Assembly (NCBI RefSeq): GCF_009931435.1 | Contig: NZ_CP043414.1 | Length of the DNA: 64,000 nucleotides | Direction: 5' to 3' (one strand) | DNA from: Escherichia coli | GTDB lineage: Bacteria; Pseudomonadota; Gammaproteobacteria; Enterobacterales; Enterobacteriaceae | Part shown: one piece after another, positions 5,274-49,774 of the stretch | Layout of the letters: each line of letters opens with the position of its first letter | Position numbering within the stretch: the stretch's first letter is position 1 | Notes under the pieces: model-generated | What the model was told of the DNA's origin: nothing | Databases searched by the model: none | What the model saw: the letters and a program-made list of their open reading frames with translations, nothing else | Made by a program: the position numbers and the translations under genes

Positions 5274-5302
5274 TAGATGCAATCGGTTACGCTCTGTATA
5301 AT
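5274..5302 (+). promoter_or_regulatory. guaBA promoter region; -10 TATAAT at 5297-5302, possible PurR-like operator at 5277-5292
   Basis: TATAAT hexamer 44 nt upstream of the guaB ATG; ATGCAATCGGTTACGC resembles the PurR consensus with mismatches. Confidence 0.45.

Positions 5303-20499: not shown

Positions 20500-20500
<1 letters not shown>
19862..20500 (-). CDS. purN: Phosphoribosylglycinamide formyltransferase 1
   Basis: 212 aa, MNIVVLISGNGSNLQAIID...; start overlaps the purM stop. Confidence 0.96.
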
Positions 20501-21555
<1,055 letters not shown>

Positions 21556-21600: not shown

Positions 21601-21616
21601 AAGCAAACGTTTGCGA
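21601..21616. promoter_or_regulatory. PurR operator of purMN
   Basis: AAGCAAACGTTTGCGA, a near-perfect match to the PurR palindrome, about 65 bp upstream of the purM start. Confidence 0.65.
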
Positions 21617-21791: not shown

Positions 21792-21835
21792 TTGCCGCCT
21801 TGAAGAAAGGAGGTATAATCCGTCGATTTTTTTTG
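21792..21835 (+). promoter_or_regulatory. upp promoter with T8 initiation tract (UTP-sensitive reiterative transcription)
   Basis: -35 TTGCCG (21792-21797), 16 bp spacer, -10 TATAAT (21814-21819), then GATTTTTTTTG at 21825-21835. Confidence 0.65.
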
Positions 21836-21861
21836 TGGCTGCCCCTCAAAGGAGAAAGAGT

Positions 21862-22488
21862 ATGAAGATCGTGGAAGTCAAACACCCACTCGTCAAACAC
21901 AAGCTGGGACTGATGCGTGAGCAAGATATCAGCACCAAGCGCTTTCGCGAACTCGCTTCCGAAGTGGGTAGCCTGCTGACTTACGAAGCGACCGCCGACC
22001 TCGAAACGGAAAAAGTAACTATCGAAGGCTGGAACGGCCCGGTAGAAATCGACCAGATCAAAGGTAAGAAAATTACCGTGGTGCCAATTTTACGTGCCGG
22101 TCTGGGGATGATGGACGGTGTGCTGGAAAACGTTCCGAGCGCGCGCATCAGCGTCGTCGGTATGTACCGTAATGAAGAAACGCTGGAGCCGGTACCGTAC
22201 TTCCAGAAACTGGTTTCTAACATCGATGAGCGTATGGCGCTGATCGTTGACCCAATGCTGGCAACCGGTGGTTCCGTTATCGCGACCATCGACCTGCTGA
22301 AAAAAGCGGGCTGCAGCAGCATCAAAGTTCTGGTGCTGGTAGCTGCGCCAGAAGGTATCGCAGCGCTGGAAAAAGCGCACCCGGACGTCGAACTGTATAC
22401 TGCATCGATTGACCAGGGACTGAACGAGCACGGATACATTATTCCGGGCCTCGGCGATGCCGGTGACAAAATCTTTGGTACGAAATAA
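21862..22488 (+). CDS. upp: Uracil phosphoribosyltransferase
   Basis: 208 aa from [20 protein letters not shown]...; Shine-Dalgarno AAAGGAGA. Confidence 0.96.
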
Positions 22489-22503: not shown

Positions 22504-22533
22504 AAAGCCGACTTTAAGAGTCGGCTTTTTTTT
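22504..22533 (+). terminator. Intrinsic terminator/attenuator between upp and uraA
   Basis: AAAGCCGACT / AGTCGGCTTT stem followed by T8. Confidence 0.7.
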
Positions 22534-22573
22534 GAGTAAAGCGCCTATAACACATAATACAGAGGAATATACT

Positions 22574-23863
22574 ATGACGCGCCGTGCTATCGGGGTGAGT
22601 GAAAGACCGCCACTTTTACAAACAATCCCGCTTAGTTTGCAACATTTGTTCGCCATGTTTGGTGCAACCGTCCTGGTGCCCGTCTTATTTCATATTAACC
22701 CGGCGACTGTACTGTTATTCAATGGTATCGGGACGCTGCTGTATCTCTTCATCTGTAAAGGGAAAATCCCGGCTTATCTTGGTTCCAGCTTTGCCTTTAT
22801 TTCACCGGTATTGTTACTGTTGCCGTTAGGGTATGAAGTCGCGCTGGGCGGCTTTATTATGTGCGGCGTGCTGTTCTGCCTGGTTTCTTTTATCGTGAAG
22901 AAAGCGGGGACCGGCTGGCTGGACGTGCTGTTTCCACCTGCGGCAATGGGCGCAATCGTTGCCGTCATCGGTCTGGAGTTGGCGGGCGTAGCTGCCGGTA
23001 TGGCAGGTTTACTCCCGGCTGAAGGGCAAACGCCAGACTCCAAAACCATCATCATCTCCATTACCACGCTGGCAGTCACGGTTTTAGGTTCCGTGCTGTT
23101 TCGTGGTTTCCTGGCAATTATCCCGATTTTAATTGGCGTGCTGGTGGGCTACGCGCTCTCTTTCGCAATGGGAATTGTCGATACTACGCCGATTATTAAT
23201 GCTCACTGGTTTGCGCTGCCAACTCTCTATACGCCGCGCTTCGAGTGGTTTGCCATTCTGACTATTCTGCCAGCGGCGTTAGTGGTTATTGCCGAACACG
23301 TAGGGCACCTGGTGGTAACGGCTAATATCGTCAAAAAAGATCTGCTGCGCGATCCAGGTCTGCACCGTTCGATGTTTGCTAACGGCTTGTCGACCGTGAT
23401 CTCCGGCTTCTTTGGCTCCACGCCAAATACTACCTACGGGGAAAACATTGGCGTGATGGCGATCACCCGTGTTTACAGTACCTGGGTTATCGGCGGGGCG
23501 GCGATTTTCGCTATCCTGCTTTCCTGCGTCGGTAAACTGGCTGCTGCTATCCAGATGATCCCATTGCCGGTGATGGGCGGCGTTTCGCTGCTGCTTTATG
23601 GTGTTATCGGTGCTTCCGGTATTCGTGTTTTGATCGAATCGAAAGTGGATTACAACAAAGCACAGAACCTGATCCTGACTTCTGTCATTTTGATCATCGG
23701 TGTCAGTGGCGCGAAGGTAAACATCGGCGCGGCGGAGCTGAAAGGTATGGCGCTGGCGACCATCGTCGGTATCGGCTTAAGTTTGATCTTCAAACTGATT
23801 AGTGTGCTGCGCCCTGAAGAAGTGGTGCTGGACGCAGAAGACGCGGATATAACAGACAAATAA
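22574..23863 (+). CDS. uraA: Uracil:H+ symporter
   Basis: 429 aa from [21 protein letters not shown]... Confidence 0.96.
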
Positions 23864-25144: not shown

Positions 25145-26608
25145 TTACATCTTGGTATAAGGCTTAAAGCGTTCCTGCAGCTGGCGCAACTGGTCGATGC
25201 GCGCATCGTAACGTGCTTGTTGCAGGCTGCCTAATTTCACCTGAGAACTGGCGCTACTCAACAAGGAAATGGCCTGATCGAGTCGCCCGGCGAGCGCATA
25301 ACCTTCTGCTCGCGCAGCCAGTTCCTGATCGCGGTTATTTAGTGCGGCTTCCGCCTGTGCCAGTAAATCCCAGCCGTTGCTGTCATCTTTATTGTTAAAA
25401 GTGTAGCGATTCAGAATATTGGCCGCTTCCTGTGGTTGCCCCCCTTGCAGATAAGCGTTCGCCAGGTTGAGCTGCAACACCGGATTGGTGCGCAAATCGC
25501 GGGCATTTTTCAGGCGATTGATAGCGTCATTGGCTTTGTTTTGCCCAAGGTCGATATCGGTAGCCAGATCGAGATACCATGCGTTGCCAGGTTCTGCCGC
25601 CAGTAACGGTTGCAGCGTTTTACGCGCTTCGTCGTATTTATTGGCTTCCATCGCCTGTAAAGCACGACCATATTGCGCCGCTCGTTGCTGACGAACGTTT
25701 CCTTTCGCCCATTCATCCAGCAAATCACTGGTGAGCTGATTACGTCCGGAATTATACATCCCCAGTGTGCGCGCTTTCGCCAGATAGAAATCCTCCGACG
25801 ACTGCACCACCATCGGGCGCATCTGATTAGCACGGTTGCGGGCATCTGCCAGACGACTTTCCGGCAACGGGTGAGTCAACAAAATTTCCGGTGGACGCGA
25901 GGAGTAACGTGCCTGATCGAGCAATTTTTCGAGGAAGGTCGGCATCGCCTGCGGATCGAATCCTGAGCGTTGCAGCACCTGAATACCAATGCGATCCGCT
26001 TCCTGTTCATTTTGCTGGGTGAAGCTGATCATCCCCTGGCGCGTTCCCGCCAGTGTACCGGTCAGCGCTGCCATCCCCGCCTGCGGACTGGCCATCGCCA
26101 GTAAAATAGAACCTAACGCGCCGACCCAGGTCAGCGGCGCGCTGCGCTGTTGATCTTCCATCGCTCGCGCCAGGTGACGTTGGGTGACGTGGGAGATTTC
26201 GTGCGCCATAACTGAAGCCAGTTGACTTTCGTTATCGGAATAACGGAACAGGGCAGAGTGCAGCACCACGTTGCCGCCAAAGAAAGCAAAGGCGTTAATT
26301 TCGTCGTTGTTGATCAGAAAAAAATGAAACGGTGTCTTAACCGAATTGGCATGCGAAACCAGACGCATTCCTAGTGAATTAATGTACTGCGTTAATAGTG
26401 GATCATTAATTAACGGCGCGCTACCGCGTAGCTGGCGGACATAATAGTCGCCCATCTGCATTTCCTGACCAATGGAAAGCGTGCTTCCTGCGGAGGTTCC
26501 CATATCCGGCAAGGTGTCTGCACTATCGGCAAACGCCGGGGCTACCTGACCAATGGTCATGGCAGCAATGAGGGTTGCAACCAGGTTTTTTTTCAACTGC
26601 CTGAACAT
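25145..26608 (-). CDS. bepA: Beta-barrel assembly-enhancing protease (M48 peptidase with TPR)
   Basis: 487 aa, signal peptide, HEISH zinc motif. Confidence 0.93.
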
Positions 26609-26820: not shown

Positions 26821-27882
26821 ATGCTCGAAATGTTGATGCAATGGTATCGCCGCCGTTTTAGTGACCCGGAAGCGATTGCCTTGCTGGTTATTTTAGTTGC
26901 CGGATTTGGCATTATCTTTTTCTTTAGCGGCCTACTCGCACCGTTGCTGGTGGCGATTGTGCTGGCCTATTTACTGGAATGGCCAACCGTGCGCCTACAA
27001 TCAATAGGCTGCTCCCGACGTTGGGCGACATCGATTGTATTGGTCGTTTTCGTCGGTATTTTGCTGCTGATGGCGTTCGTGGTAATGCCTATCGCCTGGC
27101 AACAGGGCATCTACTTAATCCGTGATATGCCGGGGATGCTCAATAAGCTCTCTGATTTTGCCGCCACGTTGCCGCGCCGCTATCCGGCGTTAATGGATGC
27201 GGGGATTATTGATGCAATGGCCGAAAATATGCGCAGCCGAATGCTCACCATGGGCGATTCGGTGGTGAAAATTTCCCTCGCCTCGCTGGTCGGTTTGCTG
27301 ACCATTGCCGTCTATCTGGTGCTGGTGCCATTGATGGTCTTCTTCCTGCTGAAAGACAAAGAGCAAATGTTGAACGCCGTTCGCCGGGTGCTGCCGCGTA
27401 ACCGTGGTCTGGCAGGCCAGGTGTGGAAGGAGATGAATCAACAAATCACCAACTATATCCGTGGGAAAGTGCTGGAGATGATCGTGGTGGGGATTGCCAC
27501 CTGGCTGGGATTCTTACTCTTCGGGCTGAACTATTCGCTGCTGCTGGCGGTGCTGGTCGGCTTCTCGGTACTTATTCCGTACATTGGTGCATTTGTGGTG
27601 ACCATTCCGGTGGTTGGCGTGGCGCTATTCCAGTTTGGTGCTGGCACGGAATTCTGGAGCTGCTTCGCGGTGTATCTGATCATTCAGGCGCTGGACGGCA
27701 ACCTGTTAGTACCTGTGTTGTTCTCCGAAGCGGTTAACCTGCATCCGCTGGTCATTATTTTATCAGTAGTGATCTTCGGTGGTTTGTGGGGATTCTGGGG
27801 CGTATTCTTCGCCATTCCATTGGCGACGCTGATCAAAGCCGTGATTCACGCCTGGCCCGATGGGCAAATCGCGCAAGAATAA
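26821..27882 (+). CDS. perM: AI-2E family transporter (putative permease)
   Basis: 353 aa polytopic membrane protein, MLEMLMQWYRRRFSDPEAIALLVIL... Confidence 0.9.
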   Translation: MLEMLMQWYRRRFSDPEAIALLVILVAGFGIIFFFSGLLAPLLVAIVLAYLLEWPTVRLQSIGCSRRWATSIVLVVFVGILLLMAFVVMPIAWQQGIYLIRDMPGMLNKLSDFAATLPRRYPALMDAGIIDAMAENMRSRMLTMGDSVVKISLASLVGLLTIAVYLVLVPLMVFFLLKDKEQMLNAVRRVLPRNRGLAGQVWKEMNQQITNYIRGKVLEMIVVGIATWLGFLLFGLNYSLLLAVLVGFSVLIPYIGAFVVTIPVVGVALFQFGAGTEFWSCFAVYLIIQALDGNLLVPVLFSEAVNLHPLVIILSVVIFGGLWGFWGVFFAIPLATLIKAVIHAWPDGQIAQE

Positions 27883-42843: not shown

Positions 42844-42988
42844 ACTGGTTATTCCTTTAAGGGGTGAGTTGTTCTTAAGGAAAGCATAAAAAAAACATGC
42901 ATACAACAATCAGAACGGTTCTGTCTGCTTGCTTTTAATGCCTTACCAAACGTACCATTGAGACACTTGTTTGCACAGAGGATGGCCC

Positions 42989-43867
42989 ATGTTCACGGGA
43001 AGTATTGTCGCGATTGTTACTCCGATGGATGAAAAAGGTAATGTCTGTCGGGCTAGCTTGAAAAAACTGATTGATTATCATGTCGCCAGCGGTACTTCGG
43101 CGATCGTTTCTGTTGGCACCACTGGCGAGTCCGCTACCTTAAATCATGACGAACATGCTGATGTGGTGATGATGACGCTGGAGCTGGCTGACGGGCGCAT
43201 TCCGGTAATTGCAGGGACCGGCGCTAATGCCACTACGGAAGCCATTAGCCTGACGCAGCGTTTCAATGACAGTGGTATCGTCGGCTGTCTGACGGTAACC
43301 CCTTACTATAATCGTCCGTCGCAAGAAGGTTTGTATCAGCATTTCAAAGCCATCGCTGAACATACTGACCTGCCGCAAATTCTGTATAATGTGCCGTCCC
43401 GTACTGGTTGCGATCTGCTCCCGGAAACGGTGGGCCGTCTGGCGAAAGTAAAAAATATTATCGGAATCAAAGAGGCTACAGGGAACTTAACGCGTGTAAA
43501 CCAGATCAAAGAGCTGGTTTCAGATGATTTTGTTCTGCTGAGCGGCGATGATGCGAGCGCGCTGGACTTCATGCAATTAGGCGGTCATGGGGTTATTTCC
43601 GTTACGGCTAACGTCGCAGCGCGTGATATGGCCCAGATGTGCAAACTGGCGGCAGAAGGGCATTTTGCCGAGGCACGCGTTATTAATCAGCGTCTGATGC
43701 CATTACACAACAAACTATTTGTCGAACCCAATCCAATCCCGGTGAAATGGGCATGTAAGGAATTGGGTCTTGTGGCGACCGATACGCTGCGCCTGCCAAT
43801 GACTCCAATCACCGACAGTGGTCGTGAGACGGTCAGAGCGGCGCTTAAGCATGCCGGTTTGCTGTAA
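42989..43867 (+). CDS. dapA: 4-hydroxy-tetrahydrodipicolinate synthase
   Basis: 292 aa from the ATG at 42989 ([19 protein letters not shown]...). Confidence 0.96.
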
Positions 43868-43883
43868 AGTTTAGGGAGATTTG

Positions 43884-44918
43884 ATGGCTTACTCTGTTCA
43901 AAAGTCGCGCCTGGCAAAGGTTGCGGGTGTTTCGCTTGTTTTATTACTCGCAGCCTGTAGTTCTGACTCACGCTATAAGCGCCAGGTCAGTGGTGATGAA
44001 TCCTACCTGGAAGCAGCACCGCTTGCGGAGCTTCATGCCCCGGCTGGAATGATTTTGCCGGTGACCTCCGGTGATTACGCAATCCCGGTGACCAACGGTA
44101 GTGGTGCTGTCGGTAAGGCGCTGGACATTCGTCCGCCAGCCCAGCCGCTGGCACTGGTTTCTGGCGCGCGTACCCAGTTCACGGGCGATACCGCTTCATT
44201 GCTGGTGGAAAATGGTCGTGGCAATACTCTGTGGCCGCAGGTGGTTAGCGTGCTGCAGGCGAAAAACTACACCATCACCCAACGTGATGATGCTGGTCAG
44301 ACACTGACCACCGATTGGGTACAATGGAACCGTCTGGACGAAGACGAGCAGTATCGTGGTCGTTATCAAATCTCTGTTAAGCCGCAGGGTTATCAGCAGG
44401 CGGTTACGGTTAAACTGCTGAACCTGGAACAGGCGGGCAAACCGGTTGCAGACGCGGCTTCCATGCAGCGTTACAGCACGGAGATGATGAACGTTATTTC
44501 CGCCGGTCTGGATAAATCTGCCACTGACGCCGCGAACGCTGCGCAAAATCGTGCCTCCACCACTATGGACGTACAAAGTGCAGCTGATGACACCGGTTTA
44601 CCGATGCTGGTCGTACGCGGGCCGTTCAATGTGGTTTGGCAACGTCTGCCAGCGGCGCTGGAAAAAGTGGGCATGAAAGTGACCGACAGCACCCGTTCGC
44701 AGGGCAACATGGCCGTAACTTACAAGCCGCTGTCTGACAGCGACTGGCAGGAACTGGGCGCGAGCGATCCAGGCCTGGCATCCGGTGACTATAAACTGCA
44801 GGTTGGCGATTTAGATAACCGCAGCAGCCTACAGTTCATCGATCCGAAAGGTCATACTCTGACTCAGAGTCAGAACGACGCGCTGGTAGCTGTCTTCCAG
44901 GCTGCGTTTAGCAAGTAA
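43884..44918 (+). CDS. bamC: Outer-membrane protein assembly factor BamC (NlpB)
   Basis: 344 aa lipoprotein (LLLAACSS lipobox) immediately downstream of dapA. Confidence 0.95.
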
Positions 44919-44961
44919 AAATACAGGGCTGGAGTCATCCGGCCCTTTTTTCTGATATGAT

Positions 44962-44977
44962 ACGCAAACGTGTGCGT
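44962..44977. promoter_or_regulatory. PurR operator of purC
   Basis: ACGCAAACGTGTGCGT, matching the PurR consensus, upstream of purC. Confidence 0.65.
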
Positions 44978-45023
44978 CGGCAGAAAAATGCGATTTTAGC
45001 GGTAATTCGCACGAAATTTGTTT

Positions 45024-45068
45024 GTCGGACGTAGGTCGGATAAGGCGTTCTTGCCGCATCCGACAAAA
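45024..45068. repeat. REP element
   Basis: GTCGGACGTAGGTCGGATAAGGCGTTCTTGCCGCATCCGACAA palindromic unit in the bamC-purC gap. Confidence 0.65.
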
Positions 45069-45130
45069 CATCTGGCACATCAGACAGCAAAAGATTTTAA
45101 AACGTTAATTCACACCCAGGAGTGATAAAG

Positions 45131-45844
45131 ATGCAAAAGCAAGCTGAGTTGTATCGTGGTAAAGCGAAAACCGTATACAGCACGGAAAACCCGGACCTGT
45201 TGGTGCTCGAATTCCGCAATGATACGTCAGCAGGGGATGGCGCGCGCATTGAGCAGTTTGATCGCAAAGGTATGGTGAACAACAAGTTCAACTACTTCAT
45301 TATGAGCAAACTGGCTGAAGCGGGTATCCCGACTCAAATGGAGCGTCTGCTCTCCGATACCGAATGTCTGGTGAAAAAGCTGGATATGGTGCCGGTTGAG
45401 TGTGTCGTGCGTAACCGTGCTGCTGGCTCTCTGGTGAAACGTCTTGGAATCGAAGAAGGTATTGAGCTGAACCCGCCGCTGTTCGATCTGTTCCTGAAAA
45501 ACGACGCCATGCACGATCCGATGGTCAACGAATCTTACTGCGAAACCTTTGGCTGGGTAAGTAAAGAGAATCTGGCGCGTATGAAAGAGCTGACCTACAA
45601 AGCGAACGACGTGCTGAAAAAACTGTTCGATGATGCTGGTCTGATTCTGGTCGACTTCAAGCTGGAGTTTGGTCTGTACAAAGGCGAAGTGGTTCTGGGC
45701 GATGAGTTCTCCCCGGACGGCAGCCGCCTGTGGGACAAAGAAACGCTGGAGAAAATGGATAAAGACCGTTTCCGCCAGAGCCTCGGTGGCCTGATCGAAG
45801 CCTATGAAGCCGTTGCCCGCCGCCTGGGTGTACAGCTGGACTGA
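45131..45844 (+). CDS. purC: SAICAR synthetase
   Basis: 237 aa from the ATG at 45131 ([24 protein letters not shown]...). Confidence 0.96.
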
Positions 45845-49687: not shown

Positions 49688-49767
49688 GTAGGCCTGATAA
49701 GACGCGTGAGCGTCGCATCAGGCATCGTTCACCATTGCCGGATGCGGCATTAACGCCTTATCCGGCC
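49688..49767. repeat. REP/BIME cluster
   Basis: GGCCTGATAAGACGCGTGAGCGTCGCATCAGGC ... GCCGGATGCGGCATTAACGCCTTATCCGGCC palindromic units between convergent ypfH and ypfN. Confidence 0.7.
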
Positions 49768-49774
49768 ACTTAGC

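Follow-up and report, generated by a model that had tools for sequence, protein, structure and literature searches.

The PurR operator of Escherichia coli purC lies at the transcription start site, and its unusual distance from the gene is probably explained by a REP-bearing leader insertion found in Escherichia

The 64,000-nucleotide stretch of Escherichia coli DNA analysed here (the window; RefSeq assembly GCF_009931435.1, contig NZ_CP043414.1) carries the genes dapA, bamC, purC, ypfJ and tmcA in that order, all on the + strand. According to the list of open reading frames, dapA occupies positions 42971-43867 and bamC positions 43881-44918, with the bamC stop at 44918. The purC coding sequence (45131..45844, + strand, stop codon included) encodes a SAICAR synthetase of 237 amino acids, as assigned from the same list, the RefSeq annotation of the BLAST matches and the K-12 annotation. 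Using BLAST, a 261-nt bamC-purC stretch was found in 5425 of the 5426 complete E. coli genomes, annotated there as bamC / purC; it displayed 100% identity to one strain, and just 13 E. coli records reached an identity of at least 99%. In the K-12 reference the four genes are the same, and the bamC-purC spacer measures 212 bp both there and in the window. Over the 241 bp around the PurR box described below, K-12 and the window align without gaps and with nine substitutions; the box and the nine bases 5' of it are free of them, two are located in the loop and one in the stem of a REP unit. Downstream of bamC a terminator scan returned the intrinsic terminator of dapA-bamC (44925..44952, + strand), which consists of a 9-pair G+C-rich hairpin (44925-44946) followed by a T-run, and both elements are kept in 17/17 aligned enterobacterial sequences.

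The preliminary description of this DNA had claimed a PurR consensus match at 44962-44977, and the match was recovered at exactly that position. The 16-mer ACGCAAACGTGTGCGT (44962..44977, read on the + strand, with no strand assigned to the site itself) agrees with the perfect palindrome ACGCAAACGTTTGCGT at 15/16 positions, with one mismatch and with the central CG present. It is the sole copy of the palindrome with at most one mismatch in the 64-kb window, where three copies with at most three mismatches were observed against 0.48 expected. A PurR position weight matrix was built from the 27 other ChIP-supported sites of Cho et al. (2011, Table 1), the purC site being omitted to avoid circularity. 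With 18.69 bits the purC box obtained the top score of the window, within the range spanned by the known sites (11.3-24.8 bits), and the same score was attained in 3/200 shuffled windows. Taken alone, this score is suggestive and not overwhelming, and it is the context of the box that is decisive.

We collected purC loci from 80 species and searched the 400 nt upstream of purC in each of them for the box that fits PurR best. A box with at most one mismatch was found in 27/80 loci, always directly after the terminator T-run. In the alignment of 17 enterobacterial sequences the box is invariant (17/17) and the adjoining leader diverges. Within the species, a 43-mer comprising part of the terminator, the -10 element and the box is identical in 5336/5416 E. 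coli records, and the purC promoter and its box are fixed in E. coli. Two further observations concern the surroundings of the box. An inverted repeat, TTTTTCTG/CAGAAAAA, brackets it in the window and was rejected as a chance occurrence because its right arm is not conserved in K-12. In two Enterobacter species (L021 and L064) the box is present in mirror image, ACGCACACGTTTGCGT, at about 100 and 69 nt upstream of purC, respectively, with the single asymmetric position in the other half-site, a state that can be reached via two substitutions or a 16-bp inversion.

The PurR matrix also drew attention to other sites in the window. The 16-mer AAGCAAACGTTTGCGA at 21601-21616 (18.2 bits) reads as the reverse complement of the site given for purMN by Cho et al. 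(2011) and corresponds to the purMN operator; it lies between a purM-sized ORF (20500-21552, - strand) and an upp-sized ORF (21835-22488, + strand). Directly upstream of a guaB-sized ORF, ATGCAATCGGTTACGC at 5277-5292 corresponds exactly, on the opposite strand, to the PurR site of guaBA in the same work, and CCGGAAGCGATTGCCT at 26866-26881, in the divergent region of the ORFs 25145-26608 (- strand) and 26821-27882 (+ strand), is identical to the yfgO/yfgC (perM/bepA) ChIP-chip PurR site. A fourth match, GCGCAATCGTTGCCGT at 22950-22965 (17.7 bits), is situated inside a uraA-sized ORF (22532-23863) and is absent from the ChIP-chip table; it could be a chance match or an unreported intragenic PurR site. 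The guaBA and purMN operators are 16,324 bp apart in the window, against about 13,006 bp implied by the K-12 coordinates of Cho et al. (2011), a distance longer by roughly 3.3 kb. The window strain may carry extra DNA in the guaA-purN interval.

PurR is a dimeric repressor of the LacI/GalR family that uses hypoxanthine or guanine as corepressor. He and colleagues reportedly found in 1990 that a purC-lacZ fusion is regulated 5- to 17-fold in a purR-dependent manner, that the purified repressor binds pur operators in vitro and that every operator of the pur regulon overlaps its promoter. Derepression of purC in purR mutants is said to have been described in the same year by both He and colleagues and Meng and colleagues. 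The preliminary description had assigned the operator to purC, and the genomic occupancy data agree: the box of the window is identical to the purC site of K-12, where this 16-mer, written as the other strand (ACGCACACGTTTGCGT), is located under a PurR ChIP-chip peak with a log2 enrichment of 2.08 when adenine is supplied and 1.52 when it is not (Cho et al., 2011; PMC3159470). The site is, then, the purC operator already known and published for the pur regulon of E. coli. Both the occupancy and the transcription start discussed below are K-12 data, from one dataset each, carried over to the window strain.

Genome-wide transcription start mapping in K-12 gives a single purC start, at 2595803 on the - strand, supported by 24 reads, which puts the length of the 5'UTR at 163 nt (Kim et al., 2012; PMC3415461, Table S1). 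In that work the sequence upstream of the start ends in ...TGATATGATACGCAAA, and the -50..+1 segment ends in ...CCTTTTTTCTGATATGATACGCAAA. Transferred via the gapless alignment, the start corresponds to the A at 44968 (+ strand) of the window, which is the seventh base of the box, so that the operator spans positions -6 to +10. Directly upstream, at 44953..44961 (+ strand), we read a putative extended -10 element, TGaTATGAT, in which TATGAT is preceded by TGa and ends 7 nt before the K-12-mapped start; its assignment as the purC -10 is inferred from this position. The element recurs without change in K-12, E. albertii, Citrobacter, Pseudocitrobacter and others. As a -35, the best candidate agrees with TTGACA at 3/6 positions and falls within the stem of the bamC terminator. 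A consensus promoter scan of 44700-45300 called no promoter, neither at the box nor between the REP unit and the ATG, and its silence at the box is due to the fact that the scan requires a -35 match. Among the entries listed from the supplements of Ettwiller 2016 and Mendoza-Vargas 2009, consulted as further sources of start sites, purC was absent, and a Klebsiella purC start sought in the data of Kim et al. (2012; PMC3415461) yielded KPN_02810 in the ortholog table only.

A natural variant bears on the -35 region. In E. coli strain MEW (L082, 1790-2500) an IS200C element, with its tnpA annotated, is inserted at the position equivalent to 44952/44953 of the window, precisely where the T-run of the bamC terminator gives way to the TG of the extended -10; it takes the place of all native sequence 5' of that TG, the -35 zone included, and leaves the -10 element and the box intact. 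This arrangement would fit a purC promoter that is independent of a native -35. About 20 E. coli genomes showed no full coverage of the spacer and may carry similar insertions.

From the end of the box to the purC ATG there are 153 nt, which makes the "about 155 bp" of the preliminary description a fair estimate, and 169 nt separate the box start from the ATG. That description had taken such spacing to imply either that the leader is long or that transcription starts near the operator, and both turned out to hold. The untranslated leader covers 163 nt (44968..45130, + strand, with the K-12 start transferred) and contains a Shine-Dalgarno sequence, AGGAG, at 45118..45122 (+ strand), 8 nt before the ATG, whose GGAG is invariant in the alignment. 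Leaving the REP hairpin aside, the leader as a whole is no more structured than shuffled sequences (z = -1.3). We identified in it no plausible small ORF for a leader peptide and no C-over-G bias indicative of a Rho-utilisation site (13 C vs 11 G downstream of the REP hairpin), and Rfam returned no riboswitch or leader family, the sole match being a partial, sub-threshold one of the REP to naRNA4, a REP-derived family.

The REP unit between operator and coding region, placed by the preliminary description at 45024-45068, was located about there. It is extragenic, between the bamC stop at 44918 and the purC ATG at 45131, and its core (GTAGGTCGGATAAGGCGTTCTTGCCGCATCCGAC, 45031-45064) starts with GTAG and agrees at 30/34 positions with the Y-type consensus. 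With four mismatches, the copy was missed at a threshold of at most three and found by a looser scan, and shuffled sequence gave zero matches to the consensus even when up to eight mismatches were allowed. The inverted-repeat arms of the unit are joined by an outer pair, TTTGTCGGA/TCCGACAAA, so that the extended palindrome reaches from 45021 to 45067. As RNA the REP folds with -20.4 kcal/mol (z = -3.5; 2/200 shuffles fold as well), and its hairpin is the sole element retained in the centroid fold of the whole leader. The core occupies approximately +64 to +97 of the purC mRNA. A 50-nt query across the REP matched at least 40 places in the median E. coli genome, and this number was reached in 4923 records. 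At the purC locus itself the REP was seen in no fewer than 5405 of 5426 E. coli genomes, and E. albertii has a REP there too. The REP unit is genuine.

Two details of the REP complement deserve mention. The left-arm hexamer GTCGGA occurs twice, at 45024-45029 and 45035-45040, and either copy can pair with TCCGAC at 45059-45064 to give alternative hairpins; in the minimum-energy fold the outer GTCGGA is used in E. coli and the canonical inner copy in E. albertii. A second REP unit of the window (49737-49770, - strand, 29/34 vs the consensus) is located downstream of tmcA.

The origin of the spacing was approached by comparison across genera. An identical 16-mer begins 65-68 nt upstream of the ATG, and no REP is present, in Citrobacter, Enterobacter, Pseudocitrobacter, Leclercia, Phytobacter, a Pluralibacter MAG (UBA7423) and others, whereas among the 80 loci a box start 168-169 nt before the ATG was encountered only in E. 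coli and E. albertii. Intermediate distances of 75-130 nt occur in a few taxa. In the alignment (n=17) the Shine-Dalgarno region is conserved and one block of about 103 nt is present in Escherichia and missing from the others. In Escherichia the leader opens with ancestral sequence as far as ...TTCGCAC, continues with about 72 nt that contain the REP and with a second leader copy of about 31 nt, and runs from there into the ribosome-binding site. The REP-bearing segment (45013..45084, + strand) is specific to Escherichia and absent from the 14 aligned non-Escherichia sequences. The first copy of the ancestral leader segment (CAGAAAAATGCGATTTTAGCGGTAATTCGCAC, 44981..45012, + strand) aligns both to the Citrobacter leader, in which it is single, and to the second copy (CAGCAAAAGATTTTAAAACGTTAATTCACAC, 45085..45115, + strand), which is contiguous with the Shine-Dalgarno region; from the 3' end of the second copy through that region, 27/28 positions match the Citrobacter leader. 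The flank-to-flank local score of the two copies is 22, a value reached in 7/2000 shuffles, and a 13-nt core of the duplication was found independently by a repeat search.

The long distance between box and ATG can thus be attributed to the roughly 103 nt that Escherichia has gained in a leader measuring about 60 nt in related genera. By this comparison of sequences, the unusual spacing is an insertion into the 5'UTR made in the Escherichia lineage and not an unusual operator arrangement. Both E. coli and E. albertii have the insertion and the sampled neighbours lack it, and since the 80 loci contain no Salmonella, Shigella-named genomes, E. fergusonii, Klebsiella or other Escherichia clades, it is dated coarsely. 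Neither the promoter-operator unit nor the translation-initiation region was damaged, as would be expected if an insertion is to persist in the control region of an essential biosynthetic gene. A different insert is seen in Kluyvera genomosp. 1 (L018, 1371-1500), where about 64 nt of non-REP sequence lie between the box and the Shine-Dalgarno sequence and the box starts 130 nt before the ATG.

Taken as a whole, we hold with high confidence that 44962-44977 is a classical purC PurR operator placed at the start site, and that its spacing from the gene comes from a leader insert tolerated in Escherichia. In the mechanism we propose, a sigma-70 promoter with the extended -10 at 44953-44961, directly after the bamC terminator, would drive purC from 44968, the extended -10 presumably being sufficient for promoter function. 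A PurR dimer loaded with hypoxanthine or guanine would bind the box and cover the start site together with the downstream edge of the -10, and the -6 to +10 placement of the box suggests that the bound repressor would act sterically, excluding RNA polymerase from the start site or trapping it there, with repression of purC as the outcome. The REP would be transcribed as a hairpin in the middle of the leader and would take no part in PurR control. It is most likely a tolerated passenger, which we take to be neutral: the non-REP insert of Kluyvera, the variable leader lengths, the variation of the REP within E. coli and the broken helix of E. albertii together suggest a permissive site.

An alternative view of the insert, which would complement and not replace the reading of 44962-44977 as the operator, is that it acts as a lineage-specific regulatory module atop PurR, through attenuation or through a changed stability or processing of the leader. 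The near-universal presence of the REP at the locus in E. coli, the occurrence of a REP in E. albertii and the stability of the hairpin are in agreement with such a role. In other contexts, REP and BIME elements are reported to act as exonuclease roadblocks and as leaky or Rho-linked attenuators, according to the literature cited by Dar and Sorek (2018) and by a 2026 preprint. On the other hand, the supplements of Adams 2021, which map 3' ends in 5'UTRs, list none for purC, and the hairpin is followed neither by a U-tract nor by a rut-like C-over-G bias. Furthermore, the outer helix of the REP is broken in E. albertii with no compensation, its loop and stem vary within E. coli, and other genera carry different inserts or none at the same spot of the leader, which points to a permissive site rather than to a selected function. 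A literature search for purC together with REP gave nothing relevant, and no expression data with and without the REP were found. We regard a regulatory role of the insert as doubtful. A bolder version is more of a long shot: the Escherichia insert could give purC, alone in the pur regulon, a control step after initiation, and the target duplication could record the insertion of a single REP.

A second alternative places a functional purC promoter downstream of the REP, with the box remote or vestigial and serving either as a roadblock to read-through from bamC or for nothing at all. A distance of some 155 bp is indeed atypical for a repressor that overlaps its promoter, and the consensus scan called no promoter at the box; the same scan, however, found no promoter-like site anywhere in 44700-45300, and the sole purC-associated start of Kim et al. 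(2012; PMC3415461) lies inside the box. The preliminary description had itself raised a promoter downstream of the REP as the case against its proposal, and neither the mapped starts nor the scan contain one. In the genera with short leaders, moreover, the -10 and the box are conserved as one block beside the terminator, which leaves no room for another promoter, and PurR occupies the region in vivo in K-12, as judged by ChIP-chip. This arrangement is very unlikely. That the 16-mer is a chance consensus match devoid of function, as its attainable score in shuffled 64-kb windows might suggest, has next to no probability and is effectively refuted by conservation and ChIP data, given that the box fronts a purine biosynthesis gene, is invariant over many genera while the flanking leader diverges and coincides with the K-12 ChIP-chip peak.

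With the classical operator and the tolerated leader insert as the preferred reading, the consequences beyond a correct annotation are small, considering that the purC operator is textbook material and that both its occupancy and its start site are published. The modest addition made here to a known operator is to account for the spacing by comparison and to describe the duplicated sequence on either side of the REP: a datable REP insertion, absent from at least a dozen neighbouring genera and carrying a copy of part of the old leader at both ends, explains the odd distance. The locus also offers a clean natural pair, a long and a short leader under an identical operator, that is usable for questions on the effect of a REP in a 5'UTR and on REP insertion. 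Should the insert prove regulatory, the flanking duplication would in addition inform on the insertion of single REPs, a poorly understood process.

Compared with known systems, the closest is the purC operator of K-12, which shares the 16-bp box, the -10, the neighbouring terminator, the leader length and the position of the REP, and from which the window differs solely by the substitutions described above, with operator and -10 untouched. The purMN (21601-21616) and guaBA (5277-5292) operators have in common with it the 16-bp palindromic motif, the central CG and a site upstream of purine-nucleotide genes; they likewise appear in the ChIP-chip table of Cho et al. (2011) and differ from the purC box in at least two positions. 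The purC REP resembles the Y-type, GTAG-tagged REP units in that it matches the consensus, is extragenic, forms a hairpin and is multicopy. Unlike BIMEs, which contain a pair of REPs, it is a single unit, and in contrast to the usual REPs of 3'UTRs or inter-cistronic regions it is found in a 5'UTR, downstream of the promoter. It is also flanked by a direct duplication of its target of about 31 nt, and we know of no description of a target duplication flanking REPs. Finally, the purC regions of Citrobacter, Enterobacter, Pseudocitrobacter and Pluralibacter display the same order of terminator, T-run and box and the same Shine-Dalgarno region, and in most of these genera the -10 abuts the box as it does in E. 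coli; they differ in having no REP and in a box that starts 65-68 nt before the ATG, as opposed to 169 nt in the window.
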